DNA of 64,000 nucleotides from an uncultured delta proteobacterium (GCA_963798485.1 CAWCTR010000007.1:352001-416000), one strand, 5' to 3'; shown: positions 24,511 through 44,231, counted from the stretch's first letter. Notes: a model not told the origin generated them from the letters alone. Made by a program: numbers and translations.

Positions 24511-24587
24511 GGCGGAGTAGCTCAGGTGGTCAGAGCATGCGGCTCATATCCGCAGTGTCGGGGGTTCAAATCCCTCCTCCGCTACCA
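24511..24587 (+). tRNA. tRNA-Met(CAT), elongator type; integration target
   Basis: GGCGGAG/CTCCGCT acceptor, TGCGG-CTCATAT-CCGCA anticodon arm, GTTCAAATC, CCA. Confidence 0.93.
24565..24587 (+). repeat. att core copy 1 (tRNA 3' end)
   Basis: 23 bp identical at 33819-33841 and 44209-44231. Confidence 0.95.
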
Positions 24588-24665
24588 TTATCTATTGATA
24601 TTATTGTTAATTTTGCCACAAAGACAGCAAAAACTTGGTAGCGGATTGGTAGCGCCGAACATTGG

Positions 24666-25847
24666 TCATTCAGCCTTGCGAATGAGCGGTATTACCTCGC
24701 CCATCTTACGCTTCCTGATCTCAGTCACAACCTCGAAAGCATCATTGTTTTCCACCTGACAGTACCGTTCAAATGCCTTGTTTGTCAGGCCGGATGCATT
24801 CAAGGCTCTTTCCGATCCGAGCATCTTTGCCGTCTCTGTAGCAGTGGTGTGCTTGGTGCCGGGGTAAAGCGGAACTCCTTCAAGTCCGATCTCCTTGCAA
24901 GCCTTCTTCCACCAGAGATAAAGCATATTTTCCCCGAATACGATATTTTCCTTGGTGGTCCCCCTAACCTTTCCGTGATGCCGGAAGAATGGCATATCGG
25001 GCATGGCGGGGAAAGTTCGCTGAAGCTCTCGCCATTGGTCAAGGTGGTCCTGGTGCAGTCTGATGGTCTTGAAGTTGTTCTTCTTCTTTGTGGGGTTGTG
25101 AATCACCAGCCATCCGCTATCATCCAGACTATTTTCCTTCACCCGTCTGAGGTCATCGGGCCTCAGTGCCGTATAGGTTGCAAGGAGGTCACACCCAAAA
25201 CATATCTTGGGATTGATGTGGTGCGATATTTCCTTGAGCTTCGATAATACCTGCCCCTGCATTTCCCAATCAATAATCTTGCGGTACTTCAATTCATATT
25301 CGACCTTGGGGAATGTCGGGAATTCGGCCAAGGTTATGATACCACCACGGGAAAGGCACCACTTCCAGAAGTCATGAAGTTGGGCGCAATGGTTCGCCCT
25401 CGTCTTCTCACTCTTGCATGGCAGAAGGTAGATGTAGTCGTCTATCATCCCACCAGTGATATCCCTGATGTTCGTGTGACCGAAGTACCTCTCTGCGGTG
25501 TTGATGTAGTAGGAAATCTTTGTAAGGCTCTTCTTCCCCTGTTGTTTCTTGCGCTCAAGATATTTCGGTGCAAGGGCTGTAAAGGAGTTGGGCCGAAGAC
25601 TACGGTAATCATTGGGATCAAAACCGCCCTTTCGGACACCCTTCTCATAGCGCAGGTAATTCAGGCGTTGCGTGGCAGCATCGTAAGACTGATATCTCTG
25701 GTAGATGCCTCCAGGAAACTTCACAGCAAAGCTGTGCGCCCTAACATCTGGATGATCTGGGCAGAAGCATCCTTTACGCCCTCCATCATGCTTCAATGCC
25801 TTTCCGCAAATATAACACTTCTCCCGTGTGTATATCCCACCATCCAT
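24666..25847 (-). CDS. Tyrosine integrase of element 1
   Basis: ALRPDDL, LYPGTKH and AFERY boxes; start at MDGGIY has a GAGGAGG RBS (ORF track extends to 25967). Confidence 0.9.
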   Translation of the reverse strand: MDGGIYTREKCYICGKALKHDGGRKGCFCPDHPDVRAHSFAVKFPGGIYQRYQSYDAATQRLNYLRYEKGVRKGGFDPNDYRSLRPNSFTALAPKYLERKKQQGKKSLTKISYYINTAERYFGHTNIRDITGGMIDDYIYLLPCKSEKTRANHCAQLHDFWKWCLSRGGIITLAEFPTFPKVEYELKYRKIIDWEMQGQVLSKLKEISHHINPKICFGCDLLATYTALRPDDLRRVKENSLDDSGWLVIHNPTKKKNNFKTIRLHQDHLDQWRELQRTFPAMPDMPFFRHHGKVRGTTKENIVFGENMLYLWWKKACKEIGLEGVPLYPGTKHTTATETAKMLGSERALNASGLTNKAFERYCQVENNDAFEVVTEIRKRKMGEVIPLIRKAE

Positions 25848-25875
25848 ACAAACCTCCTCACGTGTATTGGCGGGA

Positions 25876-25904
25876 AGGGTACACTTTACCTGCGGATACA
25901 TCAA
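25876..25904 (-). promoter_or_regulatory. Putative sigma70 promoter of integrase 1
   Basis: TTGATG-17 bp-TACCCT; same hexamers and spacing upstream of integrase 2. Confidence 0.6.
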
Positions 25905-26039
25905 CGCTGGTATAGCATCGATGTACCTAAACGCAGGTATAGTGCTGGTCTGTATGGCTGTTTCCATTTTTCTCCTAGAGGGAAGTAAAGCCTTATGGGA
26001 CCATCACAAGGATAGTCCCGATCACAGTAAATGGAGTTT

Positions 26040-26681
26040 CTATGAAGCTGTTACGGCCTGATGGCCTACAGAATGACTTGAAGCCAGACTACTGACACAT
26101 TCCATCTGCTGATAAACTTCCTGTTGTGGCGTGAAGCTATTCCTCAACACGGAGGTCTTATCCGCATAATCGTAGATGATCGGTGTTTCTTTTCCTGCAC
26201 CCATCCCAGTATCTATCATCTGCTTAGCCCAAGATGATTGACGAATGGGTGTTAACAGGAATATTTTGTTAAACCCTCTTACGCTGAAGTTTTGAGGTAT
26301 TGTACTTCCATTGATAACCAGTACGAGGAATTCCCCGTCCTCAAATTCCTTCAATGTTCTCTTCATATCTTCATAAGGGGTAGAGATTGCAATCAATCTA
26401 GCGCTAATCCCCCATCGTCGGATTTCGTCGAATAAGAAACAGCAACTATTTTCATCTTCATGAACAAACACAATTCCATCGTTCACACTGGGCAAAATGT
26501 CTTCGACGACCTTTGTTAGCCACGGCTTACTTGATAATTTTTTAAGCAGCTTGAGATATTCCTTTATCTCTGCCGGTCTGTCGCAGGAATCTTTATGTGA
26601 AAGCAACTGCCACTCAAGCAGCCTAGGTTCATGCTTCGCCTTTGCAGCAGTTTTGTCTTTGCTTGCAAAATATTTATCCAT
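26040..26681 (-). CDS. Stand-alone degenerate SF2 helicase C-terminal-like domain
   Basis: LKEFEDGEFLVLV, IFLLTP and GKETPIIYDYADK resemble the helicase C domain; motif VI arginines absent. Confidence 0.55.
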   Translation of the reverse strand: MDKYFASKDKTAAKAKHEPRLLEWQLLSHKDSCDRPAEIKEYLKLLKKLSSKPWLTKVVEDILPSVNDGIVFVHEDENSCCFLFDEIRRWGISARLIAISTPYEDMKRTLKEFEDGEFLVLVINGSTIPQNFSVRGFNKIFLLTPIRQSSWAKQMIDTGMGAGKETPIIYDYADKTSVLRNSFTPQQEVYQQMECVSSLASSHSVGHQAVTAS

Positions 26682-26765
26682 CGATCTTCCTTTCATAATT
26701 GAGTTTAGGTTGTGTTGATCATTATGCCTGCACCCCCCTTGCTGACTGTTGAAAGAGCAGGACTT

Positions 26766-26815
26766 CGGGCCGCACCAAGACGGCCCGGAGCTACCTGATC
26801 TATGCCAGCAGTGGG
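26766..26815. repeat. CGGGCCG-N8-CGGCCCG hairpin module, copy 1
   Basis: Also at 26945-26993 and 35881-35932, each followed by CAGCAGTGG. Confidence 0.85.
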
Positions 26816-26944
26816 AGGAGGGATAGCCTTTCTGTATACGAGCAGTCATGATCGACGCAGATCAGGGCTAGAGCCATACCAACATTCTACCAACGATTTA
26901 CCAACTTTTCCCAACCCTGCTGCCCTATAGATCTCGTGATACAA

Positions 26945-26993
26945 CGGGCCGCAACCAAACGGCCCGGCAGTGAATAATGTATTGCAGCAGTGG
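26945..26993. repeat. CGGGCCG-N8-CGGCCCG hairpin module, copy 2
   Basis: CGGGCCG caaccaaa CGGCCCG ... ATTGCAGCAGTGG. Confidence 0.85.
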
Positions 26994-27095
26994 AGAACGG
27001 TGATGCCAGTTACAGATTCCGTGAGTAGCCATTTTTGGCTAGCTAGGTATATTCTATGTATATTCTTTTGTTGTTTAAAGATTATAACTAGGTAG

Positions 27096-27796
27096 TCATC
27101 CTTGGCTACCACTATGGCCATCTATGGCCACCCAACTTTTATAGTCATTGCTCATCATATACAACGACCAGCGACCATTTTCACGTAACTGGCTACCTTC
27201 TCGTACCTTCTTGATGAATCCCTTCTCTTCCAGTTCATCCATTCCCCTGCTGTAGGATCTGTCACTAATTCCGAGGACGATGTTAGCCTTGGCCATGGGA
27301 AGCGCATAGGGGCCATCCTTGTAAATTCTATTACCATCTTCATAATAAAACTCTCTCTCTTTTAGAAAATGGATAAGCAGCTTCACGGCAGTAAAGGTCA
27401 GTGATATGAACGCAACTGAGTAGAGTAATTCGGCTTCTAAAACGGCATATCGATTAGTCATCCACTTCGGATCTATGTTGCTTGATTCTGCACCAATTGC
27501 CTCCCCCCCTGCTGCCCCGAGGGTCTCCATTGACACAGGTGGAACTGTCTCCACTGCTGTAGTAGAGATACAAGACTCCTCTGGTGCTTTGCCGTAAACC
27601 TGCTTGATGGCAGATGATATTTGCTCATCAGTGCAGGGTCTCAGGGTTTCCCCTTTCCATTTGGGATAGAAAGATCTCCCCATGCTCTGTACCATGTACT
27701 GCTTTGCCTCATCTTCGGAGCACCCATTTTCCTTAAGCTGGCATGTGCATAATCTGAAGTGCTGGATCTTTCTGGGCTTGTGTCTTCATTCTTCAT
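27096..27796 (-). CDS. Winged-helix protein (replication-initiator-like), 5' end frameshifted
   Basis: ORF 27096-27695 has LGISDRSYSRGMDELEEKGFI and aligns by eye with 36038-36406; the ATG with an RBS at 27796 is out of frame. Confidence 0.6.
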
Positions 27797-28066: not shown

Positions 28067-28773
28067 TCACTCTCCCTTTTTTCTCGTTAAGTTAATGAAG
28101 TTCTTCATTGTCCTTATCGCATAGCTGATCACCTCCTTATCAAGATCTCCCAATGAGATCTTCTTCATCCTTTCTTGGCTTACATCAATCATGAACTCCA
28201 CATATTCCTTGGTAAGGCGTTGGGGATCTCTCAATAGATTTCCCAAAGAGCAGCTTATCAAGAGCAAGTATAAGCTCTTCTCTTTGCTGTCTCGTTGTTC
28301 CGAGTCATCTGATCTATTGCCCAGATCATGAGCATTCCCCTGACCTTCATTCCTATGCCGTTGAAGTCCTGTATGATGAAGTTATCAACTAAGCGTTTAA
28401 CAAGGGCTGGGCCAACAACTTCTTCGTAATTATCTTCATTAACATTCGGATCACGATTCCTTGATTCCTCCACAATGAACTTTACCAAGTCCATCCTGAA
28501 ATCATCTATCCTCTTCATGAAGTTCTGATCTACTCGCCATTTCCGAATCACCTTGTAAGAATTCTCTGTGATCTCAGCAATTGTCATCAGATCCAGATCA
28601 GTGACCATCAGAAGGTTCGCCCTTTGCTTCTTGAACGGGTAACCAATAGGATCTCCCCTCGTAACCCCTTTACGCTCCGGTTCTACAAACGTATCCGAGT
28701 TGATGGTGAAGAACTCTTTAAGCAATGGGCCAATCAGATAGCCAGGTTCTACATCTGGTTTTAATTGTTTCAT
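28067..28773 (-). CDS. HTH-containing protein, probably one gene split by a frameshift near 28265
   Basis: LMTIAEITENSYKVIRKWR HTH-like segment; overlapping ORFs 28258-28773 and 28067-28267. Confidence 0.5.
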
Positions 28774-28822
28774 CTTTAGTCACCTCATAAGTAACATATA
28801 TCATATTGCTACCCAGATGATA

Positions 28823-29040: not shown

Positions 29041-29076
29041 CAAGCTGAACTGATCTGCCTGTGCTTAAATAAAAAC

Positions 29077-29235: not shown

Positions 29236-29289
29236 AGCATTTCTCCTTGTGTGTTTTAATCCAGCAGGGTTGCTGCTGGGTTGTGTACT

Positions 29290-30268
29290 ACTGATCCGCT
29301 ATTGGTAATACCCAAGACAGACCCGAACGGTCTTGTGACCACTTAGGGCCATGGTGTCACCCAAGGATTTGCCTTGTCTTCCTGCTTCAGTGACAAAGCC
29401 ACTTCTCAGGGAATGCGCTGCAAACATAGAGGCATCAAGCCCTGCCAGTTCAGCAGCGCCTCTTGACAATCCGTGTAACTGTCATATCAGTAAGGCTCGT
29501 TCCTATCTTGTGGCCTTTTGTGATACTCCTGAATATGTAGCCCTCAGAGATGCCACTTGCCTTGAGCCATGCTTCAAGGGCGAACCCTGCACGGCCAAGA
29601 ACTAGGCAAGTCAACTATCCCTGGCCTTCTTGGTCAGATCTTCGAATATGGCAAGATGATATACGTAAGCCGCCATCAATGCTGGTGAGATGTTCAAGCC
29701 TTGCCATGTGCTACTTCGGATCGTCTTCTACCACCAGAGCCGAAGGCAAATAAGATGAAGAGCTTTATCCCGAATGTCTATCAAGGATCTGGTCTGCATG
29801 GGAACAATGGCTTCCAGGAGATCACGTGTAAGAGCCTTTACCTTGCGGGGCATCTGTCCTCTCTTCACTGCTGCCTTACGAGCTTTTGACAGCAGGGTGG
29901 ATATTTCCTTCTCCCTGCAAGGATTGTGTACCTTCATGGCTTCATGAGCTGCGGAAAGAGCAAGCGATACGCCTACAGATAGTATTAAGGCTGTGCGTTC
30001 CAGTCTTCGCTTTGATGCCGATAGATACAAGGTGCCCGTCAAGGGCATCACTCATGCCATACAGATGGTCTGTGATGAAGCGTACGAGAAGGCCAAGAGG
30101 TACAGGGTATTCCATATCGAACCCTGCTGCAATCTTTGACCACGCTTTAAAGTATTCAATGTCAGACCTGTAAGCCTTGCGGGTGTTATCTGCGGTACCT
30201 TCGTCCAGGATGGTCTTCACCCTTGATGCAACTTCAATGGAGATTGTTGTTCTCTGCATGGTGCTCAA
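29290..30268 (-). pseudogene. Cre/TnpS-like tyrosine recombinase with multiple frameshifts
   Basis: Fragments NTRKAYRSD, DIRDKAL, FGSGGRRRSEV, SK-DQEGQG, AHSLRSGFVTEAGRQG and SGHKTVRVCLGYY across frames; 3' end approximate. Confidence 0.85.
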
Positions 30269-30336: not shown

Positions 30337-30664
30337 ATAATCTAATTTACGAAGATATAGCAGTAACGTAATGACATGATATGTCAATGCGAAGATCTTG
30401 ACTAACAGATGGATCATCATTATATTGAGAGGTATGGAAAGGAGACTGAAGATAGATCTATTGCCTAAGTCATGAACGGGGATGCTAGGGGAGATTTTGA
30501 GAGGCTCTGTAGATAACCATGCATGGTGAGGATGATAAGCATGGCATGAACGAGATCGTATGAAGTACCAAGCTGGACAGAACTTCTTAAGAGATTGAAG
30601 AACTTGACTGTAGACGTATATCAGAAGCTTGATGATATGATCGATGATGCTTTGCTGAGATTAT

Positions 30665-31057
30665 CTTAAGAAGCACGAACCTCATGCAAAGAAGTGATCA
30701 TGTATGTAGCTTGATAGAGCGATGATAATGAGTTGAGATGATGTCCTTGGTGAGGGTAGGGAGTGCAGCGAAGGCTTACCATCGAGCTATTAACGAGCTG
30801 GAATATGTGTTGTAAGGACTGTGATGTTCCTTCGGAGTGAACTTGATGAACTTCTTACCAGCAGGGGAGGAGCATCCCGGACAACCAGGGAGAAAAGGAC
30901 GATTCTCTGACACTATGGCCTATTAGATCAGTACCCCCCCCCATGACCGTCGCAGAAAGGGGGGTAATGCATGAGTCTCCTATTATGTATCCCTATGCAC
31001 ACGCTCGCCTGTCTGAGATCAATCCAAAAAAAATTTCAATCCCTATCGCATTTAAAA
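30665..31057. repeat. About 400-bp non-coding module, copy 1
   Basis: Collinear blocks shared with 39115-39417 and 41254-41950. Confidence 0.85.
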
Positions 31058-31170: not shown

Positions 31171-31401
31171 CTATCTCTCGATGGACAACGGGCATAGCTC
31201 AGCCACACCTACAGTTATTGCCGCTTCGCTGCCAGCGCAGTTGTAATAACAGATCTTGTTCATGCCCGATATCTGCTCTCCGGTTTTAAAGCAAAGAATG
31301 CCCGTGGGCCTATCGTTGGAATCCAACCGATTAAGGCTCGCAGGTGAGCTAAGGACAGTAAACATTATGAGTGCTACCAAAACCATTCTGATGATTTTCA
31401 T
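31171..31401 (-). CDS. Small secreted protein with four Cys
   Basis: Signal peptide, CFKTGEQISGMNKICYYNC...CPLSI, GGAGG RBS. Confidence 0.7.
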   Translation of the reverse strand: MKIIRMVLVALIMFTVLSSPASLNRLDSNDRPTGILCFKTGEQISGMNKICYYNCAGSEAAITVGVAELCPLSIER

Positions 31402-31441
31402 TTGTCCTCCTCTATTGACCTATATGCAAGATGTTCATGAA

Positions 31442-31954
31442 TTAAATTGAATCCTTGTGCTTGATTGTCACAGTGAGCATACGAACTTCTATATTCATAT
31501 CCATTTCTAATAACTTGTTTCCTATGATTTTTTGCTCTTTCTGTCCTGTTGAAGTCACACGTTTAAAAGCATTTGTAAACCAATCTGAATCTGAATCATC
31601 CTCCAATTCAGGTGCAACATTCTTAACAAACCTCATCATCTTAGCTAAGTTTTCAAGTCTAACATGAGCATCATCTGGAAGACCGATGGCAAGTGATGCT
31701 CTTGAAACATTATCCCTATTCCCTGTTATTTCCAACCTCGCATGATCACCTGGTGCATTTCCACCGTAACAAGGCAGACCACGAACATCATCCAATTTAA
31801 CCATGGGGAAATCCTGGCCGATATATCTCATTATCTGATCATATGAAATTCCAATGGGTAATAATTTTTTTGTTTGAGCATTGGCATTTGAAGATGTCAA
31901 TGCTGTGAGCAAAAAGCAAGTTATTCCAAATATCAAAATGACTCTATTCCGCAC
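31442..31954 (-). CDS. Exported hypothetical protein
   Basis: Signal peptide ending ANA; AAGGAG RBS. Confidence 0.7.
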   Translation of the reverse strand: MRNRVILIFGITCFLLTALTSSNANAQTKKLLPIGISYDQIMRYIGQDFPMVKLDDVRGLPCYGGNAPGDHARLEITGNRDNVSRASLAIGLPDDAHVRLENLAKMMRFVKNVAPELEDDSDSDWFTNAFKRVTSTGQKEQKIIGNKLLEMDMNIEVRMLTVTIKHKDSI

Positions 31955-32088
31955 GACAGACTCTCCTTACATAACTTATTTGTGTTTACATTTAACACAT
32001 TGTGCCAGTTAATAGCACTCAAAAAACATATGCTGCTCTGAGCAGGTAGATGATGGATAATGCCGCACCTTACGTAATCTGTTGAGCA

Positions 32089-32698
32089 TCATTTCAACTG
32101 ACTGACGCCCACTGATTTATCAACTCCATCAACCTTCATTTTAAATCCACCGCCATACCGGAAGATTATTACTCCCGGCATGAAAGCGTAATGGTAGCAG
32201 TAGTAATATTCGCTCTGCTGCCATATCTGCCCATTGGTCAGCTTCACGATAGTCTCTCCTTCCCATCCTTTGAAATCACCGTCTATTTTGCATTCGATTA
32301 CTTCCGAAGAAGGTTCTTTTTGTGATTCAGATTTTGCTGATTCCAAAGACCTAGCCTGCTGAAGAAAGCCGAAGAGTTGTAGCGTTTGATCGGGACTTAA
32401 TCTACGGTTCTGAGATATATTTACAATATCCTGAGAAGTGACTCCGTAAGCCCCTTCACTCTTAATCATAACAAAGAGATCGTTCATTGCAGCTTTTAAT
32501 CTCTGTTTATTCAGAGTCGCAGAAAGATCATCCATTGATTTGGTGAAAGAATCAGTCTCCTCTCTTAATCTGCCGATTGGCTTCTTCACTTCCCACAAGC
32601 CTTCCCATAGCCCACCTCCGGCATGAATGACTCGATGACCAGAACCATACGGTGGCTGATGCCAATATGAGCAGTACAATGATTTGTGCCTTCTTCAC
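32089..32698 (-). CDS. Exported hypothetical protein; signal peptide separated by a +1 frameshift
   Basis: GTG at 32698 gives MKKAQIIVLLILASATVWFWSS; removing one base joins it to VIHAGGGLW...; C-terminal IDGDFKGWEGETIVKLTNGQIWQQ domain. Confidence 0.6.
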
Positions 32699-32817
32699 GA
32701 CTTACATGCCCCCTCATAAGGAAGATGGACTTAACCATTAGAGATGTTGTTTGCCTAATTATATAAGATTATGATCTATTTAATGGATTATGGCAACAAT
32801 AACACATACCATTATTT

Positions 32818-33366
32818 TCACTTGCCAGTATACCTCTCCGAATGCCCCTTATGCTCGTTGAAGTTCTGGATATACCTGTCCACCAAAGGCTTGTTCCCTT
32901 TCATGATCAAGAGGTTCTCTGCATTGTTCTCCTCTGCTGCCTTGGTGAAGTTGAATGACCCCGTGATCAAGGTGACCCGGTCTATCACCATGATCTTGTT
33001 ATGAGCTATCGCATGGGCTGAGTCGATATAAGTTGGTATCCCAGCATGAGCGACAAAGTCAGCAGATGAATACTTCTGAGAGCGTTGCCCTTTATCCAAG
33101 ATCACCTCTATCTTGATTCCTCTCTTCCAGGCATCGACAAGGGCCTTGGCTATGGGCTTGCTTGTGAAGGAATATGCCTGAACAAGGATCTCTGATCTTG
33201 CCCCGTTGATCTCTTGCACAATGGCTTCTGTAGCACCACCACGAGGGGAGAAGTAGGCATCTATAGTGCCGATTGCCTTGAACTGCTCAGCATGGGCCGA
33301 TATAGGTAGGATCGAAATAATCAGACAGCAGGTGAGGAGAATGAGTCTGGGTGCAATGTATTTCAT
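32818..33366 (-). CDS. Phospholipase D family Nuc-like endonuclease, exported
   Basis: FSPRGGA, AYSFTS, single HKD motif HNKIMVID, TGSFNFT and NAEN; signal peptide. Confidence 0.9.
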   Translation of the reverse strand: MKYIAPRLILLTCCLIISILPISAHAEQFKAIGTIDAYFSPRGGATEAIVQEINGARSEILVQAYSFTSKPIAKALVDAWKRGIKIEVILDKGQRSQKYSSADFVAHAGIPTYIDSAHAIAHNKIMVIDRVTLITGSFNFTKAAEENNAENLLIMKGNKPLVDRYIQNFNEHKGHSERYTGK

Positions 33367-33445: not shown

Positions 33446-33718
33446 GCCTCTGTTTCTGTCTGTAGTAACATATAATATTCCAAGCATGTCCATGAACTGG
33501 CTTCCCTGCTGATGATGTAGCAATCCACATATCACAATATTGCCTTGCCCAAACATGCGTATAACTAGTTTTCATACCGTCAAGCGGTGATGAACAGGAT
33601 GGAATAAATAATACTGAGTTTATTCGTAATATTAGAGATAATCCCAGTATCAATCCACCGATGTCTTCCTTATGGCTCATGCTCTTGAGCGTAGATTGAA
33701 ATATGGTGCCGATGTGCG
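33446..33718. repeat. About 270-bp right-end conserved segment, copy 1
   Basis: Collinear diverged copy at 43846-44117. Confidence 0.92.
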
Positions 33719-33818
33719 CTTAATGTGAACACCATTATTTTGAATCATCCAATCTTGCGGAGTAGCGCAACGGTAGCACCCTACCTGCAAAGCATGGCTG
33801 TGACTTATTGGTCGAGGG

Positions 33819-33841
33819 TTCAAATCCCTCCTCCGCTACCA
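33819..33841 (+). repeat. att core copy 2, followed by an IHF-consensus site
   Basis: 23-bp core, then TAACTTATTGATA matching YAANNNNTTGATW. Confidence 0.93.
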
Positions 33842-33858
33842 TTAACTTATTGATATTA

Positions 33859-35022: not shown

Positions 35023-35053
35023 GCATACCCCTCCCTCGAATTTATGTGAGGGA

Positions 35054-35082
35054 AGGGTATACTCTGTCTGGGAAAACATCAA
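35054..35082 (-). promoter_or_regulatory. Putative sigma70 promoter of integrase 2
   Basis: TTGATG-17 bp-TACCCT, with palindrome AGCATCGATGCT at 35092-35103. Confidence 0.6.
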
Positions 35083-35269
35083 TGCTTGTGCAGCATCGAT
35101 GCTCCCAGATCTGCATGTGGACTCAGTCTGCAAAGTTAGTAATACCTCCGTCTATGGCAGCAGGGGGCTGCGCTGGGTGAAGTTTCCGTTTCAACTCGAA
35201 TCAGTGCTTCATCGATTTCCATCAAGGAATGATGGAACTTTAAGAACTACTTGAAATTATAAGGTGAAT

Positions 35270-35830
35270 CTCATAACCTATTGGAATATAATGATTTATA
35301 TGCGTTCCCAACAAAATCCTAACAAGTTCCCAACAAATCCTAACAGACCCAACAAATCCTAACATTGTCGTATTAAACATCATAATACATTGGATTCAAT
35401 ATAACTTAGTGCGTTCCGAACAAAATCCGAACACGTTCCGAACAAATCCGAGCAATCCGAACATTTCCGAACATTCCCATCATGGTTACGGGATGAAACA
35501 CTTAACTATATGAAATATAATACCTTTCTGTCACTCTCAACAAAGTCTCAACAAACTTTCAACAACTCTCAACACTCTCAACAACTTTCAACAATCCCAT
35601 CATGGTTACAGGATTAACCCACTTAACCTATTGGAATATATTGATTATATGTGTTCTGAACAAAATGTGAACACGTTCTGAACAAATCCAAACAATGTGA
35701 ACAAATCCAAACAATCCCATCAAGGATACCGGATGATTCCACTAAACCGATGGAAATATAATGTCTTTCTGAGCAACCTCACAGATTCCTCACAAATTCT
35801 GACAAACCTCACAGATCCTCACATTGTCAT
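35270..35830. repeat. Hierarchical array: five units of about 120 bp, each with 5-6 phased 9-11 bp repeats
   Basis: Repeat ends at 35313-35364, 35422-35473, 35542-35593 and 35662-35713 (spacing 11,11,10,9,10) and 35783-35823 (11,10,9,10). Confidence 0.95.
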
Positions 35831-35880: not shown

Positions 35881-35932
35881 CGGGCCGCAACAAGACGGCC
35901 CGAAAGTATATAGAGTCTATTGCAGCAGTGGG
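35881..35932. repeat. CGGGCCG-N8-CGGCCCG hairpin module, copy 3
   Basis: CGGGCCG caacaaga CGGCCCG ... ATTGCAGCAGTGG. Confidence 0.85.
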
Positions 35933-36037: not shown

Positions 36038-36406
36038 TTACCTATACTCTTTCCAGCTATCGACAAGCCTGTATGTTGCCAATGTATTCCTCTTTTTTCC
36101 CATTACTCCTTTTCGTGCTCTCCGTAGGAAGCCTTTTTCAATCAGATCTGCAATATGCCTAGTGAACGAGGCGCTGCTTATCCCCAACCCTTTCGCTCTT
36201 GCAGCAGGGAAGGGATAAGGCCCCTCGTCATAGACAGGCTTTCCTTCTGAGTCAGCCGTAAATGTCCTCCAGTGAAGGAATTCCATAAGCACATACCGGG
36301 CATCCCCACTAAGAGCCCTGAACGCCCTTGAATGGAACATATCCCTTTCTATGAAGAGGCGAGGAGCTTTGCCCTTCCATTCGTCAGCAATGTCTATCAG
36401 TTTCAT
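36038..36406 (-). CDS. Winged-helix protein (replication-initiator-like)
   Basis: AFRALSGDARYVL and LGISSASFTRHIADLIEKGFL; AAGGAG RBS before MKLIDI. Confidence 0.7.
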   Translation of the reverse strand: MKLIDIADEWKGKAPRLFIERDMFHSRAFRALSGDARYVLMEFLHWRTFTADSEGKPVYDEGPYPFPAARAKGLGISSASFTRHIADLIEKGFLRRARKGVMGKKRNTLATYRLVDSWKEYR

Positions 36407-36966
36407 ACTCCTTGCCTCTCTCTCCCTGCTGTCGTAGTAGCCCCGTGGCCTAGTATTCCAGAGCTGCTCCAACTAAGTTTGTATTCTCCATAGCCCTGAC
36501 ATACACCTCGGCAAGCAATATTCACAAGGGCGATATTACATGATGGCAAATATACTGATAAAAAAGGGGCTCCGATGATAGTCGTCACTCCTTCTACACG
36601 CTCCTCCACTAGCAAGCATGTATCGCTGGTAAGCACGAGTCTTGCGGTACTTGACGACTTTTTTCATGTATGACCCCCTTTCTGGCCTAAACATACACCT
36701 TGGCAATCAATATCATAAGCACAAAAAGACTATAATGGAAAATAATTTGCAATGGTGTTGCCATGATCGCCGTGACCTCCTTTTTGGCTTAACCATACAT
36801 CTTGGCAAAGAAAGTTGTGAACACAAAGTGATCACTGTTGAAAATGTATTTTACTCTCTAGCCTGACAATACACCTTGGAAATTAAATTGGTTCGTGCAA
36901 ACTGATACAGTATTAATTTCCTTGCTGTATTTCGAGTTAATGGTTGGTGAGCTCTGGCTTGTCCGG

Positions 36967-37365
36967 CTACTTCTCCAAGCTTGCAAGAATGCCTTGTAAT
37001 ACAGGTGTCAGGTTATAACCACGCTTAAGGATTTGGTCGATCAGTTCATTAACCTTCGTGTTGGAGAGAACCCTTGCAACCCTCCAGAATCCCTTTTCCC
37101 TCGGATCATCATAGCCCTGTCCGTCATAGATGTCAGTTGCTGTTATGACACCACCTTCAATAAAGCTTATGAGGTAATAAGCCGTTAAAGGCTTCCTGTA
37201 CTTGGATGTCTGAGCATTCTTCGATAACAGATCTGATAACCTGGAGTTGGGGAACCCCAGCTTAATCGATAGTTCCAACTGGTTCATATTGTTCTTATGC
37301 AGATAGTCACGAACCAGAATGCCAAACTTCTCTTGTAATCTTGATAGATTAACCTTGTTCAACAT
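36967..37365 (-). CDS. XRE/Cro-like HTH regulator
   Basis: MNQLELSIKLGFPNSRLSDLL; GGAGG RBS. Confidence 0.7.
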   Translation of the reverse strand: MLNKVNLSRLQEKFGILVRDYLHKNNMNQLELSIKLGFPNSRLSDLLSKNAQTSKYRKPLTAYYLISFIEGGVITATDIYDGQGYDDPREKGFWRVARVLSNTKVNELIDQILKRGYNLTPVLQGILASLEK

Positions 37366-38341: not shown

Positions 38342-38956
38342 TTAATTGCTTGAGTCCAATGCCTTGGCATTTCTCTTCGCCCTGACAAGCGTTGACACAC
38401 TCAGACCAGTCTCTAAGGCAACATCATTGTAGCTCTTCCCCTGCTGGAGTAGGGCAAGACCATTCCCCACCTTGTCAGCTTCTCTCCTTGGTCTTCCACC
38501 AATTCTTCCCTTTGCCCTTGCATTGGCAAGCCCTGACTTGACACGCTCACGAATAAGCTCAAGCTCGAACTCAGCTATCAAGGATAGCATTCCTGCCATC
38601 ATTCTCCCTGCTGGTGTGGTCATGTCTACTTGACCAGGTGCCACGAAAGCTACTCCCAGGTGTTTCAATTCATCAACTGTATTCACAAGGTCTTTAGTAG
38701 ATCGACTCCACCTATCCAAGGATAAGACCAGGATAGCATCAATCTCCCTCTTGCGTGCCATGTTGAGGATCTTCTCACGTTCTGGTTTCTTCTCTGCTGC
38801 ACCACTTATCTTTTCCTCGAACTCTATGACTATCTCCCAGCCTCTTGCCTCTGCATGTGCTCGAAGGTCTTTGAGTTGTCTATCCACTGATTGATCCTTT
38901 GTCGATACCCTGGTGTAAATCGCCACTCGCTCCACTTTCCCTACTTTCTTGGGCAT
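38342..38956 (-). CDS. Serine resolvase/invertase
   Basis: YTRVST, LDRWSRS, ERVKSGL and GGRPR motifs; C-terminal HTH. Confidence 0.93.
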   Translation of the reverse strand: MPKKVGKVERVAIYTRVSTKDQSVDRQLKDLRAHAEARGWEIVIEFEEKISGAAEKKPEREKILNMARKREIDAILVLSLDRWSRSTKDLVNTVDELKHLGVAFVAPGQVDMTTPAGRMMAGMLSLIAEFELELIRERVKSGLANARAKGRIGGRPRREADKVGNGLALLQQGKSYNDVALETGLSVSTLVRAKRNAKALDSSN

Positions 38957-39114
38957 GGTCAAAAACCTCCTTAAAATGATGTCTGGAAATCAAGCACTGA
39001 TGCAGAGGGTATCACACAAATCACTGATGGTCAAATACAATTGATTATGACCAATCAAGGAGACAGCCCCAGCAGGGTATCAAGAAGACTGATTGTATTG
39101 AAATGATATAGGTC

Positions 39115-39417
39115 GATAGAGCGATGACAACAATCGGGATGATGTCCTTGGTAGGGCTGATACAACTAAGGCTTACCACCGAGCGGCTACGAGCTGGGAA
39201 TTGTGATGCAAGGACTGGGAAGATACCATTGCCAAGAAGGAAGGATTGTACAGACAGAATGAATTCCTTGGATTCCTGGCCCTTAGTTTGACCCCCCCTG
39301 GCACCCCCTGGCAGAAAAGGCCCACCCCATAGAGTCTCCTTCTATGTATCCCTATGTGCTTGTGTGCCTGTCTGGAGGTAACCCCAATATTTTCCAAAAT
39401 CTAATCGCATTAAAAAA
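39115..39417. repeat. Non-coding module, copy 2
   Basis: GATAGAGCGATGA..GATGATGTCCTTGGT..AAGGCTTACCA..poly-C..TATGTATCCCTATG..ATCGCATT. Confidence 0.85.
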
Positions 39418-39453
39418 GCAGGGACTGAGATTTACCGTGCTTTTACAAGCTTA

Positions 39454-40239
39454 TTAACAGCAATGATATTTATTGAGCTTCTTCCTGAATCCAATAAGCC
39501 CGAGCAACCCTGACCCGAAGAGACGTATGCTTGCCGGTATCGGGGTAGCTGTTGCCTCGGCGACTGTGCTGCCGTTGGCATAGAGGGTGAGAATGGCGGA
39601 GTAAGGGGTGCCGTTTGCACCCGGTGCAACCGTGGCAATATTGAAATGGTAGAGGTACATGGTCACGGAAGCGCCAGTATCGAGGGCTGCAAGGTTGGCC
39701 TCGCCAATCTGACTGACCCTATTCAATCCTCCAAAAGCGCCGGGAGCAGTTCCATTCTGATCCATTTTCGCCCTGTATGAATCTGAGTTGCCTGGGTCTG
39801 CATCTACGATCTGGTTTGTGACCCCATTGAGGTTTGTGCGGTAGTAGGTGTTGGCAACAAAGTTATAAGCATTACTAAAGGCAATCAAGAAAGTATTATT
39901 GATTGACGGCCTTACATTCTGCGTGGTTGCAAAATATTCTTGATGGGGAGTAGAACCACTACTACCGCTGTAGGCAAAGAACCCAACACTCAGATTCGAC
40001 CAGCTGGATGCCTGGAGTGCGCTGAGATTGATGCTGTTCGCCCCGGCAAGAGTCAATGGGTTACTACTGAGTGTGTCAAGTCCTAAGGTGGTTAGATCGC
40101 CGAGATCAATAGCACGTTCTGCCGTAGTTCCATTGTACACTACCTCTATAAGATGGTTGTTCTCGAAATAGGCAAATGCCTGAGAGGAAATGGCTGTCAT
40201 GAGCACGATGGTTGGCACTATTATAAATAATAATTTCAT
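39454..40239 (-). CDS. PEP-CTERM (VPLPA-type) sorted surface protein
   Basis: Signal peptide; C-terminal TPIPASIRLFGSGLLGLIGFRKK. Confidence 0.85.
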   Translation of the reverse strand: MKLLFIIVPTIVLMTAISSQAFAYFENNHLIEVVYNGTTAERAIDLGDLTTLGLDTLSSNPLTLAGANSINLSALQASSWSNLSVGFFAYSGSSGSTPHQEYFATTQNVRPSINNTFLIAFSNAYNFVANTYYRTNLNGVTNQIVDADPGNSDSYRAKMDQNGTAPGAFGGLNRVSQIGEANLAALDTGASVTMYLYHFNIATVAPGANGTPYSAILTLYANGSTVAEATATPIPASIRLFGSGLLGLIGFRKKLNKYHCC

Positions 40240-40274
40240 ATTGTTAACCTCCATGGACACCCTTTGTTGTGATG

Positions 40275-40940
40275 TCAGATGCTTCTCTTCTTCCTGGTTG
40301 CTGCCAATCCTGCCAAACCGGAACCGAATAATAGGAAGGTTGCTGGCAGTGGTGTAGTCACAGGCGTGCGAGTCCAAGTGCCTGTGCCGAAAGAGGCAGC
40401 TAAAGTTATAAACTGTGGATTTTGAGGTGTACCACTTAAATACCAAACATCGTCACATATACTACCGGGATACTGATCGGTTTGGATATAATAGTAGCCA
40501 TGTAGTGTGGAAGATGAAGCGCTAGAGGTATAGAGATCAGTATACCACTCCGTTGGAAGACCTGATGAACCCACAGCCATTACACGAAGTGCAAGATCTT
40601 GAAATGCCGACCCAGATGGTATGACAAGGGCACCAGAAGATAGGGTATATTGGGTCGTTAGTAAAAAGCCCCCGTAGGCTTGAGGATCAGATGCGCCTGG
40701 CTCAGCAGCTGCTGCTGCCAGTGCGGCTGGTGTACATATGAATTGTAGCGTCATATGATCACCGATGATAGGAGTGGATGGGAATGAGGGGCCTGTGAAA
40801 TAAGTGAAATTAGCGCTAGTGTATGTGTAAAGATACTCTTGGTCGGCGTGGACTGAAAAGGGTACCATCAACATCAGGATGAGAAGCGGTAGAGTCATGG
40901 GTTTGAATGTGTGGATACGTTGGGCTTTGGGTAAGTTCAT
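40275..40940 (-). CDS. PEP-CTERM (VPLPA-type) sorted surface protein
   Basis: Signal peptide ending VHA; C-terminal TPLPATFLLFGSGLAGLAATRKKR. Confidence 0.85.
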   Translation of the reverse strand: MNLPKAQRIHTFKPMTLPLLILMLMVPFSVHADQEYLYTYTSANFTYFTGPSFPSTPIIGDHMTLQFICTPAALAAAAAEPGASDPQAYGGFLLTTQYTLSSGALVIPSGSAFQDLALRVMAVGSSGLPTEWYTDLYTSSASSSTLHGYYYIQTDQYPGSICDDVWYLSGTPQNPQFITLAASFGTGTWTRTPVTTPLPATFLLFGSGLAGLAATRKKRSI

Positions 40941-41253
40941 AAATAATCTCCTCACAAAAGATTTACCGTTCTTATTGCCACGGGACATGCTTCACCCGCA
41001 TTGCACTCTAAGTCTTATATCTTGTGAGGGCTTTCTGGTTCTTCGGTTAACTACTGTTTGTCCCTAGGAAAGGATCACTTGTAAGCCAGCAAAGTACCCT
41101 TAACGGATACTATTAACATGGTTCTGTTAATATCGTATGAATGAATTGTTAAGTCTTGGTGAATGTATGAGAATGTTTGAGGGGTTATTTAGTGTTAGCT
41201 ACAACTCGATCTTACAAATAGAGAACTGACACTGAAGATGCTCTACGGGATTA

Positions 41254-41950
41254 CCTAAAGAAGCACGAACCTCATTCCAAAAAGTAACCTTCATGAAATA
41301 AGGTCTTAGGGCTTCGTGATTAACGAGATGGTATGCCTTGGCAGTGTTGAGGTCTTGAAGGCTCATCAGAGAGCTGTAACGAGCTCGGAATGCAACTCCT
41401 AACCCATATATAGATTGTATGCAGCACCAAGGAAGCATATTGCTTTTTAAAAAGATATGGTGTCTTGTTATCTGAGATACTTCCAGCAAGGCACACTATA
41501 ATGTTTGGTAAAAATGATTACAAAGACATAGCTGACAAAGATCAAACGGAGAAGCCTGTAAGGTTAAAAGGCTCTTTTACTTGTTACAAATGTGGGCAGA
41601 GATATGACAATAAGTTTAAGAATCGACATGAAGTCCAAACGGGATGGAGTATTGGTCGAAGCTTAAGATTATATCGTCACCCTGTTAGCCTATGTCTTAC
41701 CTGTTATAAGAAGCAGATTAAGCAGGAGCGAGTCGTGAGCTTGATTATAGTTGCTGTTATAGCCTCTTTGGCCTTTGCTGCTTTACATTACCATTGGTTT
41801 TAAAAAAGACTGATTCCTAGCACTCAGATTGACCCCCCCCCCCGGTATACCCGCTGTAGAAAGGGTGGTATAGGTAGAGACTCCTTTTATGTATCCCTAT
41901 GCACACGCTCGCCTGTCTGAGATCAATCCAAATAAAATTTCCAACCCATA
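41254..41950. repeat. Non-coding module, copy 3, interrupted by a small gene
   Basis: 41254-41392 aligns to 30665-30805; 41887-41932 is identical (46 bp) to 30983-31028. Confidence 0.85.
41501..41803 (+). CDS. Small protein with two CxxC motifs and a C-terminal TM helix
   Basis: CYKC...CLTC followed by a hydrophobic tail. Confidence 0.5.
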   Translation: MFGKNDYKDIADKDQTEKPVRLKGSFTCYKCGQRYDNKFKNRHEVQTGWSIGRSLRLYRHPVSLCLTCYKKQIKQERVVSLIIVAVIASLAFAALHYHWF

Positions 41951-41999
41951 TTAAATAAACAACTCCAGTCCTAGCTCTACGACCAACCAACATTCAAAC

Positions 42000-42362
42000 T
42001 TATTTATCTTCAAACCTGACGGCTATCCCATAAACTTCGGTGGTTTGGTAACAAAAGATATTATAAATCGGGATGAACCCATACATACTATTGGTTACGG
42101 TGACATTAATCAAAGCGTCTCCTCCCTTTTTTGCAAGGGCATCATTCACTGCGGTTGAGAATGTTCCATCTCCCCATGGGATTATTGCTAAGAGGAAGAA
42201 CCGACTAGACTCGCCTTGCACTGCACCCAACTCCTTGTAGGATTTACCATTTCTCAAGAGTGCACCAGGATCACCCATACTCCTGGCAACTATACCAAGT
42301 GTTCCTGTAGACGAACAACCAAACAATAACACTGCCACTAATAGTACAACAATTTTTTTCAT
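42000..42362 (-). CDS. Small lipoprotein
   Basis: MKKIVVLLVAVLLFGC lipobox, GGDALINV; GAGGAG RBS. Confidence 0.8.
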   Translation of the reverse strand: MKKIVVLLVAVLLFGCSSTGTLGIVARSMGDPGALLRNGKSYKELGAVQGESSRFFLLAIIPWGDGTFSTAVNDALAKKGGDALINVTVTNSMYGFIPIYNIFCYQTTEVYGIAVRFEDK

Positions 42363-42510
42363 ATTATCTCCTCAAATTTAATGTAATAAATTCAGGCGTT
42401 ATTCCAACATGTTATATTTCTACAACTTTAGTGTCTTAGAGGAAACCACAAATGAAATATTGTCATGACAGTGGGATATAATATCATATTATTCTTAAAA
42501 AATATACTAT

Positions 42511-43805
42511 GGATCTGTAAATTAATTACATGCTCAATTTACCTTTGCAGGTATAATTGAGTAGTTCCACTCACCATGGAATTCATCACGCGAAATGCGT
42601 ATCGCGGCAAATTCTTCGTTAGTCACCCGGATGCCTTTCGGATAAGGTTTTGAGTCGAGTTCTGCTCGCACTTTCAATCCTTTTCGTGTGGTGGTTGACG
42701 CAATCAGATTCACTATTACTTCATGACTAACTAATGGCTGCCCACGCCAATTCATGCTAATATGCGAAAACAATCGATGTTCAATTTTATTCCATTTGCT
42801 TGTTCCCGGTGGGAAGTGACTGACACGGATAGGAATACCAAGCTCATCGGACAACAACTGCAACTCAAGTTTCCATAGCCGAACCCGAGAACCATTGCTG
42901 CCACCACCATCCGCTGTGATTATCAACTCTTTGGCATTGGGATAGAGCGGTCTCCCCATTGAAAACCACCATCGGCGAATTGTGGACACGGCAAAGCTTG
43001 CCGTGTCATGATCCGTACCTACGCTAACCCAGCCAGTATTGTTTGCCAGATCATAGACACCATATGGGTTGGCGCGGCCCAGATCTTTATCAACAAAGTC
43101 ATATACATTAACTTGTTCTGGTTCTCCCTGTGGCCGCCATTCCTTTCCTCCGTTCTTAAACTGACCAACGAGTTCTTTCTTCTTGGTGTCAACCGAAATT
43201 ACCGGTTGCCCTTTACGCAACGCTTCTTCTGTCCGGGTGTTTATATATTTAAACTGCGCATCGCGGTCGGGATGGCTAGACCCTTCCATGGTTTTGCGGT
43301 TTCCTTGCAGGCTATATCCAAGCTTTTTAAGTAGTCCTCCTATAGACGTGTGGCTAACAATATACCCCTCCACGCCCAACTCAGTTTCCAGCTGCCTCAG
43401 GCTCTTGCAGGTCCAGCGTAAGGGTGATTCTGGATCTCCCAGGGTTACCGGCTCTACCAAGCTCTCCAATGCTGTCAGCAATTTCGCGTCGCCTTTAACA
43501 GAAGCTTTTCTCCCGGCGCCTACTCGGCGTATTCGCCGCGAACTGCTTCCCAGTTCCTCAGGCCTTTGAGCAAGATCTTTTAACCCTTGCTGAATCGAGC
43601 CACGCGCCACCCCTGTTGCTTTCCATACAAGCGTTATGCCGCCATGACCAACTACTTTTGCCTCGGATGCGGCTACCAAACGCCTCAATCGTTCATCTAA
43701 CGCCCATTCAATACTCTGATAGCGCTCTTTGATTGCTGACTCATTATCCATGCATTAAATCTAACACACAGTGTTAATATAGTCATGTTATTTATTTACA
43801 GTTCC
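42511..43805 (-). mobile_element. ISAzo13-family insertion sequence, apparently complete
   Basis: Imperfect ~22-bp IRs (GGATCTGTAAATTAATTACATG / GGAACTGTAAATAAATAACATG) and a 3-bp TAT target duplication. Confidence 0.9.
42534..43751 (-). CDS. ISAzo13-family DDE transposase
   Basis: ISVDTKKKELVG, ITADGGGSNG, PPGTSKWNKIEHRLF and FHGEWNY motifs. Confidence 0.95.
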   Translation of the reverse strand: MDNESAIKERYQSIEWALDERLRRLVAASEAKVVGHGGITLVWKATGVARGSIQQGLKDLAQRPEELGSSSRRIRRVGAGRKASVKGDAKLLTALESLVEPVTLGDPESPLRWTCKSLRQLETELGVEGYIVSHTSIGGLLKKLGYSLQGNRKTMEGSSHPDRDAQFKYINTRTEEALRKGQPVISVDTKKKELVGQFKNGGKEWRPQGEPEQVNVYDFVDKDLGRANPYGVYDLANNTGWVSVGTDHDTASFAVSTIRRWWFSMGRPLYPNAKELIITADGGGSNGSRVRLWKLELQLLSDELGIPIRVSHFPPGTSKWNKIEHRLFSHISMNWRGQPLVSHEVIVNLIASTTTRKGLKVRAELDSKPYPKGIRVTNEEFAAIRISRDEFHGEWNYSIIPAKVN

Positions 43806-43845
43806 TATGCCTGATCTGATTATTGATCTAACGATCATAGATTAT

Positions 43846-44117
43846 GCCTCTGTTTCTGTCCGTAGTAACATATAATATATCAAGCATGCCCTTGAACCGG
43901 CTCCCCTGCTGATAATGTAGCAATTCACGTATCACAACATTGCCTTGCTCAAAACATGCGTAGAACTAGTCTTCATGCCGTCAAGCGGTGATGAATTAGA
44001 TGGAATTATCAATACTGAGTTTATTCAAAATATTCAAGATAACCCCAGTATGCACACCCAAGTCATTCACATGGCTCATGCTCTTGAGCGTAGATCCAGA
44101 TATGGTGCCGATCTGCG
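43846..44117. repeat. About 270-bp right-end conserved segment, copy 2
   Basis: Collinear with 33446-33718. Confidence 0.92.
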
Positions 44118-44208
44118 TAGAAGGGGGTCACTATCGCAATACATTCACCTTCCCCGTATCTTCCCCGTAGTGCCTGGAGAGCTAGGCTAGGGCAGTAACT
44201 GTGGAGTA

Positions 44209-44231
44209 TTCAAATCCCTCCTCCGCTACCA
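44209..44231 (+). repeat. att core copy 3 (right boundary)
   Basis: TTCAAATCCCTCCTCCGCTACCA. Confidence 0.93.

Follow-up and report, generated by a model that had tools for sequence, protein, structure and literature searches.

Small elements that integrate at tRNA genes, with an integrase and a replication module and without capsid or conjugation genes, are already known, and the closest described systems are tycheposons and the satellites of the phage-inducible chromosomal island (PICI) and P4 types. Here we analyze two adjacent elements, E1 and E2, in a 64,000-nucleotide stretch of DNA (the window) from an uncultured delta proteobacterium (GCA_963798485.1, CAWCTR010000007.1:352001-416000). 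On balance, we assign both to this kind: they are PICI/P4/tycheposon-like integrative elements in partial decay, with a winged helix-turn-helix (wHTH) protein that probably represents a new family of replication initiator. The twin elements themselves are ordinary, being tandem, partly decayed tRNA islands in a genome rich in insertion sequences (ISs). The main value of the locus lies in the unnamed wHTH family, which occurs beside integrases in compact islands of Desulfobacterota that are delimited by attachment sites (att) and carry defense and surface-protein cargo.

Tycheposons (Hackl et al., bioRxiv 10.1101/2020.12.28.424599) share with E1 and E2 a tRNA-targeting, site-specific tyrosine integrase, partial tRNA copies at both ends, cargo, an absence of capsid and conjugation genes, and the occurrence of several elements and degenerate fragments at one tRNA; 'cryptic' tycheposons with an integrase and an excisionase only are also described there. 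The gene layout of E1 and E2 matches the tycheposon layout, with a putative replication role for the wHTH protein and a truncated helicase in E1. Membership, as set out in that source, needs a lineage-specific integrase clade and hallmark gene profiles, and the present elements differ both in host phylum, with relatives' records labelled Desulfomonilia, Syntrophaceae or Desulfobacteraceae, and in their replication slot, which holds the unnamed wHTH gene rather than a primase or polymerase.

PICI/P4-like elements, as described by de Sousa et al. (bioRxiv 10.1101/2022.09.14.508007), share a length of ~10 kb, a terminal integrase followed by regulators and then a replication module, and accessory or defense cargo, represented in relatives of the present islands by type I restriction-modification (R-M), SIR2-HerA, TIR and AbiJ. 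Under the PICI model of SatelliteFinder, the integrase is present (PF00589 and phrog_1 across both elements). For the regulation module, no match to HTH_17/AlpA was found inside E1 or E2; a 132-aa repressor-like protein of E2 (HTH132) matches phrog_1468 at 2.3e-6, and a 171-aa protein of E1 (E1_171) gives only weak helix-turn-helix (HTH) matches in profile searches. No primase-replicase family occurs in either element, only the C-terminal remnant of a helicase. Unlike PICI/P4-like elements, E1 and E2 have no Pfam or PHROGs match to the small terminase gene terS or to capsid-morphogenesis or packaging-interference genes, and none of their 22 open reading frames (ORFs) matches psu/delta/sid, epsilon or alpha primase; no helper phage is known. 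The combination of an integrase with a Prim-Pol/DUF3987 primase, which we found in a sibling island of the same genome, would be at most a 'Type C PICI' in the terms of that account.

Minimalist chromosomal islands that are inducible by phage (PICMIs), as described by Barcia-Cruz et al. 2024 (PMC10803314), consist of an integrase, AlpA and a DUF3987/DUF5906 primase, integrated next to fis. They resemble the present elements in the idea of a minimal satellite of ~6 genes and in the order int, small gene, HTH regulator, unknown gene and replication gene, with no packaging genes and with large non-coding regions containing pseudogenes, whereas E1 and E2 have neither AlpA nor primase and target tRNA-Met. 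Because they show no primase, no terS and no AlpA, E1 and E2 do not qualify as PICI, P4-like or PICMI elements on the features tested.

Tandem accretion at a single att site is known from the ICESt1/ICESt3 system, together with cis-mobilizable elements (CIMEs) that have no recombinase of their own. The locus described here is similar in having two tandem elements with a common att copy, from which single or composite excision is possible in principle. Unlike CIMEs, E1 and E2 each carry a full-length integrase, and no conjugation module lies nearby.

Two insertions at one tRNA-Met gene

The 3' end of the tRNA-Met gene is present in three direct copies, at 24557-24593, 33811-33847 (35/37 identical) and 44201-44237 (30/37), with a 23-nt core that is identical in all three (24565-24587, 33819-33841 and 44209-44231). 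These copies bound E1 at 24588-33841 (~9.25 kb) and E2 at 33842-44231 (~10.4 kb), and a minus-strand tyrosine integrase lies beside the left att of each, as a preliminary description of this DNA had it. The boundary features are:

24511..24587, plus strand: tRNA-Met (CAT), the integration target, with the attL core at 24565-24587 (ARAGORN; Rfam tRNA, 64.2 bits; repeat search)
33756..33847, plus strand: tRNA-like pseudogene at the right end of E1, holding the middle att copy 33811-33847 (ARAGORN, Rfam, alignment)
44201..44237, plus strand: right att copy, core 44209-44231, beyond which the native flank resumes (repeat search, alignment, congener G002)

The whole 19.7 kb is an insertion, as judged by the distances between flanking genes and by an empty site in a congener. 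The left flanking gene was detected in 14 of the 15 genomes of the genus and the right one in 12; the two are 20.6 kb apart here and only 0.5-5.3 kb apart in all eight congeners that have both on one contig. In congener G002, the homologue of window positions 44209-44349 directly follows tRNA-Met. Under our preferred explanation as a whole, which we hold to be rather likely, E1 and E2 integrated site-specifically and independently of each other at the 3' end of this one gene, forming a tandem array.

ARAGORN reports the tRNA-like sequence at 33756-33841 as an 86-nt 'tRNA-Cys', with an Rfam score of 34.6 bits, above the gathering score. As the middle att copy is the 3' end of this sequence, the part of a tRNA carried by E1 seems to extend beyond the crossover core. 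Immediately beyond the right att, at 44301-44696, lies a gene for a 131-aa PEP-CTERM protein.

Gene content and decay

All E1 genes are on the minus strand. Sibling islands on contigs C14 and C22 of the same genome, described below, helped to identify several of the features of E1:

24666..25967, minus strand: tyrosine integrase, apparently intact, with a likely true start at the Met at 25847 (393 aa; phrog_1 1.6e-13, family alignment)
26040..26849, minus strand: ORF with a truncated SF2 helicase remnant, 26040-c.26510 (tblastn to helicases on C22 and C30; blastp to the helicase of locus L015, 2.4e-8)
26766..26966, no strand: two copies (26766-26787, 26945-26966) of the hairpin CGGGCCG-N8-CGGCCCG, each followed by the conserved GCAGCAGTGG (repeat and genome motif search)
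27096..27695, minus strand: wHTH protein, 199 aa, member of a large unnamed family and candidate replication initiator (homology, predicted fold)
28258..28773, minus strand: E1_171, HTH-like, a short member of a family of 231-246 aa (homologue search)
29257..30268, minus strand: 'second recombinase', a tyrosine recombinase pseudogene with at least three frameshifts (tblastn with intact copies from C22, 360 aa, and C14, 296 aa)
30643..31043, no strand: intergenic '400-bp' module directly upstream of the second recombinase, with the core CAGACAGGC..CATAGGGATACATA on the gene strand
31171..33366, minus strand: cargo, namely exported proteins of 76 and 170 aa, a 196-aa protein and a phospholipase D (PLD) nuclease at 32818-33366 (translations, profile search)
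33446..33735, no strand: end segment, upstream of the PLD gene, 85% identical to those of E2 and C22

The features of E2 are:

33859..35133, minus strand: tyrosine integrase of a lineage unlike that of E1 (PF00589 3e-9)
35290..35830, no strand: five blocks of about six 10-11-bp repeats each, in a 120-bp tandem repeat (2.9 copies), candidate iterons or origin (repeat search)
35881..35902, no strand: third hairpin copy (repeat and genome motif search)
36038..36472, minus strand: wHTH protein, 144 aa, AlphaFold2 model with a predicted local distance difference test (pLDDT) score of 83 (homology)
36967..37365, minus strand: HTH132, 132 aa, repressor-like, flanked by the repeated ACAYCTTGGCAA (phrog_1468 'transcriptional repressor', 2.3e-6)
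38342..38962, minus strand: 'second recombinase', a serine resolvase/invertase (PF00239 2.8e-43; phrog_125 3.9e-53)
39106..41947, no strand: two partial copies of the intergenic module (39106-39410; 41234-41285 with 41835-41947) flanking two PEP-CTERM genes (39454-40446, 40275-40988)
42534..43751, minus strand: ISAzo13-family transposase, an IS insertion (PF07592 4.2e-147; NF033519 5e-177)
43846..44134, no strand: end segment (E1-E2 nucleotide alignment)

Further E2 genes encode a plus-strand lipoprotein and a DUF6567 lipoprotein. The E1 helicase remnant, the E2 ISAzo13 transposase (4e-147) and the E2 repeat blocks at 35290-35830 are additions to the preliminary description. That description had assigned E1 and E2 one blueprint, which is looser than stated and does not extend to the integrases, the regulators or the second recombinases. 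The two integrases show no global similarity and align in short patches only, and the two HTH regulators (28258-28773 and 36967-37365) have no homology. The second recombinases, a tyrosine-recombinase pseudogene and a serine invertase, belong to different superfamilies. Its report of exported cargo is borne out by signal peptides and lipoboxes in the translations and by a PEP-CTERM profile match. The PLD nuclease of E1 has a signal peptide and is NucT/DrmC-like (PLDc_2 2.7e-27, NucT 1.2e-19, DrmC 3.9e-13), and the E2 PEP-CTERM gene has a chromosomal paralogue on C14 at 72% nucleotide identity (blastn).

Scans with Pfam, PHROGs and NCBIfam found no capsid, terminase, relaxase, type IV secretion system (T4SS) or primase in E1 or E2, in agreement with the preliminary description. 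The further claim that the elements have no self-mobility genes fails, as both integrases are intact, E1 retains part of a helicase, a sibling island has a helicase and a primase, and the wHTH gene occupies the slot of a replication gene. Only residues 114-249 of the E1 helicase ORF are homologous to other proteins, namely to the Helicase_C half of SF2 helicases of 461-483 aa; the ResIII motor half, present with Helicase_C in the full-length relatives, is absent. The N-terminal part of this ORF, which overlaps the hairpin, is probably spurious. Decay is thus visible in the helicase of E1, of which only the C-terminal third is left, and in its frameshifted second recombinase, in the absence of a helicase from E2 and its IS, and in the lack of a recognizable excisionase.

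Sibling islands in the same genome

Searches of the 32 contigs with blastn and tblastn showed at least four related islands in this genome: E1, E2, one at a tRNA-Val on C14 and one at a tRNA-Glu on C22. Perfect 45-bp repeats of the 3' end of tRNA-Glu bound the C22 element, which is 18.1 kb long with its two ISs. Its order is integrase, a 109-aa protein, an intact SF2 helicase (ResIII and Helicase_C), a 684-aa primase (Prim-Pol and DUF3987), a sigma-70-like protein, and then an intact 360-aa tyrosine recombinase, the intergenic module, cargo, PLD and the end segment. The C14 element has an 18-nt repeat with one mismatch 18.5 kb away, and three IS copies. A 410-aa tyrosine integrase lies beyond its distal att, beside an 85-nt fragment of the end segment (L001 184-1416; C14:166183-167415), and this suggests another tandem array at that site.

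The left half of the C14 element is E2-like and its right half E1-like. It shares with E2 HTH132 (94% amino acid identity) and the region upstream of int (87% nucleotide identity), and with E1 the PLD (92% amino acid identity), the 76-aa (91%) and 170-aa (80%) proteins and the recombinase (85% nucleotide identity). E1 and C22 share the PLD (91% amino acid identity) and the end segment (85% nucleotide identity). We lean, as part of the same overall explanation, towards islands of two parts, a variable left one with a tyrosine integrase and a small replication and regulation module, and a more conserved right one with the second recombinase, intergenic module, exported cargo, PLD nuclease and end segment. 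That the proteins are strongly diverged and the non-coding sequences conserved, as first described, is correct for E1 against E2 alone; against the C14 and C22 siblings, the coding modules are 80-94% identical in amino acids. Since coding and non-coding parts are equally conserved among the siblings, modules appear to have been exchanged recently among co-resident elements. What remains of the E1 helicase testifies to a lost replication module, one still kept by the C22 sibling, and together the remnant and this primase-bearing sibling indicate descent from replication-competent elements.

A widespread, unnamed wHTH family

The wHTH proteins of E1 and E2 are homologues that share 33% identity over 104 aa. 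Their family lacks a model in Pfam, NCBIfam and PHROGs and is unnamed in every source searched. Homologues of the E2 protein were found in 5 of 60 relatives. An 11-sequence profile detected the family in 24 of 122 genomes of the class and, in a library of 1.84 billion proteins, in 2,062 representative clusters (defined at 50% identity) at E<=1e-3; of these, 913 reach E<=1e-10 and 52 reach E<=1e-30.

A PF00589 integrase is near the wHTH gene in 19 of 24 loci outside this genome. It lies within 3.2 kb in all eight loci that were fully scanned, three of which also have HTH_17. In 11 of the 16 others it lies within ~6 kb, in one case as a fragment; of the five loci without it, two run into a contig edge. 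The 16-locus scan covered only ORFs of at least 140 aa within ~6 kb, with L029 (split wHTH) and L030 (contig end) left out. Among the 11 tRNA-adjacent loci, six have clear att repeats, delimiting islands of 6.4, 6.3, 7.3, 7.8, 9.9 and 12.0 kb. Among the cargo of the loci outside this genome are type I R-M, SIR2-HerA, AbiJ, a TIR protein, resolvases and, in L019, PEP-CTERM proteins. Capsid, terminase, portal, relaxase and T4SS families are absent from all 294 ORFs neighboring wHTH elsewhere, which argues that the islands are not remnants of large prophages or of integrative and conjugative elements (ICEs). The small size proposed for this class of element is thus confirmed in its homologues, rather than a derivation from larger elements with phage or conjugation modules.

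A possible replication initiator

The AlphaFold2 model of the wHTH protein, made from a 59-sequence alignment, is a winged helix with a pLDDT of 83. Foldseek searches of the Protein Data Bank (PDB) returned weak matches only, in which MarR/ZitR regulators were mixed with the RepA_N initiators 4pql, 5kbj, 4pt7 and 4pta. VIA-align gave Z<=7.4, with 4pta, ORC/Cdc6 and the N-terminal domain of DnaD as well as regulators among the matches. A viral fold library pointed weakly to RepA-like initiators, replisome organizers, DnaD and lambda-O-like proteins (E 1.5e-3 to 2e-2). Weak Pfam matches to HTH_36 and DnaD_N occur in four and one of the 59 members, respectively, and profile searches of the PDB with wHTH alignments gave only E>=0.07.

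Gene position is the stronger argument. The genes of L015 run wHTH, SF2 helicase, a 96-aa protein, integrase and tRNA-Leu, and in C22 a Prim-Pol stands in the wHTH position, beside the same kind of helicase. Members of the E1_171 family, found in 5 of 401 genomes of the phylum, precede replication genes in other islands: in L117 a D5_N/DUF5906 primase-helicase comes next, in L119 a DnaB-like helicase, and in L116 and E1 wHTH. As this replication slot carries more weight than the fold, we favor an origin-binding initiator, at slightly better than even odds, over a pure regulator, which we consider unlikely.

The candidate binding sites are repeats near the E2 wHTH gene. Inferred from sequence, the phased E2 blocks at 35290-35830, beside this gene, are putative iterons to which the wHTH protein may bind. 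The ACAYCTTGGCAA copies form a second set, with three direct copies and one inverted within 36691-37512 and 39229-39244 and a palindrome at 36868-36931. They flank the HTH132 gene and also occur upstream of wHTH, and are 87% conserved with C14; they may be operators or an origin, and are likewise candidate wHTH binding sites. Each of the five E2 blocks has its own repeat variant (CCYAACA, CCGAACA, CTCAACA, GTGAACA/CCAAACA and CTCACAG), homogenized block by block and separated by conserved ~60-bp spacers, and the C14 sibling has one block only. Such block-wise concerted variation is unusual for iterons.

In the proposed mechanism, the integrase would excise a circle through att x att recombination, and the wHTH protein would bind the repeated sites next to its own gene and start replication of the circle, assisted in complete relatives by an element-encoded SF2 helicase or primase. 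Transfer to new cells would then occur via a helper, in phage particles, by conjugation or in vesicles. If the wHTH protein is an initiator, it would mark a large set of small integrative, replicative elements, to which current finders of satellites and ICEs would be blind, as these key on primases, terS or relaxases, and it would offer a testable case for how 'helper-dependent' islands replicate and spread in anaerobes. A more far-reaching proposal, taken as one joint claim, is that the family defines widespread, undescribed, minimal tRNA-integrating 'hitcher' elements of 6-12 kb with a core of integrase, sometimes an HTH_17 excisionase, and wHTH. Here the wHTH protein would be a new origin-binding initiator that replaces the primase/helicase of PICI, P4, PICMI and tycheposons by recruiting host replication proteins to iteron arrays, and the five repeat blocks of E2 would be an origin answering several sibling initiators. 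As a whole, this claim is doubtful.

A number of results weigh against reading E1 and E2 as mobile elements with a wHTH initiator. MarR_2 is the commonest weak Pfam match (6 of 59 members), regulators of the MarR/ZitR type rank equal or better in the same fold searches, and all Z scores are below 8, in the noise range. An SF2 helicase is beside wHTH in only 1 of 24 loci outside this genome, and none of 26 loci with an E1-type integrase in named genomes has wHTH beside it. In relatives, the 10-11-bp repeats are sporadic short arrays only (L021, L022, L035, L038) and no regular feature. No relatives of the E2 wHTH protein emerged from tblastn searches of a phage collection (50,697 records) and a plasmid collection (72,556 records). 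The genome assembly, 97.5% complete, has no match to PF05065 (capsid), PF03354 (TerL) or PF03432 (MOB-P relaxase), and thus no obvious resident helper phage was seen. Finally, neither a circular form nor an excision junction nor expression was seen, and the only public run with any of this DNA was uninformative. That run belongs to one soil-metagenome study, with 0.23 of the sampled words, and its contigs cover only the tRNA, a 256-nt piece of the E2 integrase and portions of the transposase, with no junctions; no RNA data set with this DNA was listed. Single-protein scans of IMG/VR with the L015 and E2 wHTH proteins also found no relative, at a sensitivity too low to count as evidence.

The wHTH protein could instead be a MarR-like transcriptional regulator, a master repressor or activator, in islands that are non-replicative integrative and mobilizable elements, mobilizable genomic islands, or defense and cargo islands. 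MarR, MarR_2 and TrmB are the commonest weak sequence matches, MarR/ZitR/AdcR top the Foldseek PDB list, and most wHTH islands have no helicase or primase. However, downstream of the same family of leader genes, wHTH takes a place equivalent to that of primase and helicase genes, and its neighbor is an SF2 helicase in L015 and the remnant of one in E1. The viral fold matches are replication initiators and replisome organizers, not repressors, and wHTH is co-directional with int in the gene maps. Classical master repressors are divergent, as in the Stl and CI layouts. We therefore regard a purely regulatory family as possible but improbable.

Another reading is that E1 and E2 are immobile fossils, two old integrations that became fixed and are kept solely because of the exported proteins, PLD nuclease and PEP-CTERM proteins that they carry as cargo, while their mobility modules decay. 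The truncated helicase, the frameshifted recombinase, the IS in E2, the lack of a recognized excisionase and the diverged right att copy (30/37) are consistent with this, as are the IS-rich genome, with three and two IS copies in the C14 and C22 siblings, and the ORF-poor stretches at 27700-28250, 28780-29250 and 30270-31170. Yet both integrase ORFs are full length with the family-invariant residues, the wHTH and regulator ORFs are intact, and attL matches the middle att at 35 of 37 positions. In eight congeners the site is either empty or occupied differently, which makes the insertion recent on the scale of the genus, and a contig in another assembly (L046) is 97% identical in the E1 integrase. 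Complete immobility is thus an unlikely state for the pair, and we retain the reading of partly decayed elements in which some mobility may persist.

Non-coding modules

A nucleotide comparison of E1 and E2 gave nine high-scoring segment pairs. The end segments (33446-33718 and 43846-44117) are 85% identical over 274 nt, and pieces of the intergenic module are 83% (30934-31043 and 41835-41947, 113 nt) and 75% identical (30704-30824 and 39106-39220). The hairpin described earlier as common to both elements is indeed in both, with two copies in E1 and one in E2 (26766, 26945 and 35881), and has one other copy in the 4.3-Mb genome. Outside this genome, a search of 60 relatives gave no copy of the module and weak end-segment matches in just two (73% over 174 nt; 82% over 45 nt); the weak match at G003:C6 has neither element proteins nor a tRNA close by. 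The hairpin is missing from the wHTH loci of all 11 relatives scanned for it. Among the genomes searched, such modules are therefore essentially confined to this one, and a class of element defined mainly by cis sites, as the preliminary description proposed, finds no support. A new class of minimal satellite or mobilizable element, defined by cis sites for helper machinery and without replication genes of its own, is very unlikely: the missing capsid, terminase, relaxase, T4SS and primase, the 75-85% identity of non-coding sequence between elements whose integrases and regulators cannot be aligned, the three of four genomic hairpin copies inside E1 and E2, the small homologous islands and a VirB4-like ORF that could belong to a helper all fit it, but it is opposed by this confinement to one genome, by equally conserved coding modules that point to recent modular exchange, by the descent from replication-competent elements, and by the end segment of C22, which shows that this segment is neither an integrase arm nor a site for packaging or transfer that is element-specific and bound to a single machinery.

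The VirB4/TrbE-like match (PF03135, 7e-9) is at C4:282224-282475, in an 817-aa open frame, and may indicate a conjugative element elsewhere in the genome.

The intergenic module is always just upstream of the second-recombinase gene, whether this encodes a tyrosine or a serine enzyme (30643-31043; 39106-39410; 41234-41947; L001 8815-8990; L002 6808-7109). In E2, its two partial copies bracket the pair of PEP-CTERM genes, which have chromosomal paralogues. Judged by this arrangement, the module may be a recombination site for cargo exchange. Other assignments were discarded. The module is not a structured RNA or attC, as five copies showed no conserved fold (-2.1 kcal/mol) and no Rfam match. 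An integron-like cassette array was rejected on the same lack of an attC-like fold and because the E1 second recombinase gives only generic matches at the level of XerC/XerD/XerA. A sigma-54 promoter in the module core has a spacing that is off by one, as judged by eye, and the hairpin is not an intrinsic terminator, since no T-run follows it on either strand. The end segment is not an arm site of the integrase, as it closes elements with different integrases and att sites, including C22; it is the region upstream of the PLD gene.

A small terminase (TerS) was also considered for E1_171. Feature comparison returned small-terminase look-alikes with scores of 0.88-0.91 and a low shared-feature count. 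PF10668 matched one of six family members (E 0.029), the fold search gave E>=0.09 and the PDB profile search no support, with an AlphaFold2 model from six sequences at pLDDT 68.5; we leave this assignment at low odds.

Integrase lineages

The E1 integrase has 272 homologues of about 390-415 aa and keeps all 72 invariant columns of a nine-sequence family alignment. The invariant N-terminal motif of the family, CxxC..H..CxC..H, probably forms a zinc ribbon that replaces the classical arm-binding domain. The E2 integrase has a paralogue beside the tmRNA gene of C8 (64.5% identity) and shares 36% identity with the integrase of C14. In the GT(K/R)HTT box, Lys replaces Arg in the E1 integrase and its closest relatives, and the unrelated E2 integrase also has GTK.

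Among the 26 loci of the E1 lineage in named genomes, two are at tRNA-Met and seven at tmRNA, with further ones at other tRNAs. Given the absence of wHTH from all of them, a fixed pairing of this integrase type with wHTH was rejected. The lineage is a generalist, and elsewhere serves inovirus-like prophages, a Toprim-primase island and defense islands. In L070 and L081, inovirus-like modules end with an integrase of this lineage, beside tRNA-Ser and tRNA-Leu; the module in L070 contains Rep_trans, a Zot-family ATPase and a secretin, and that in L081 contains Zot.

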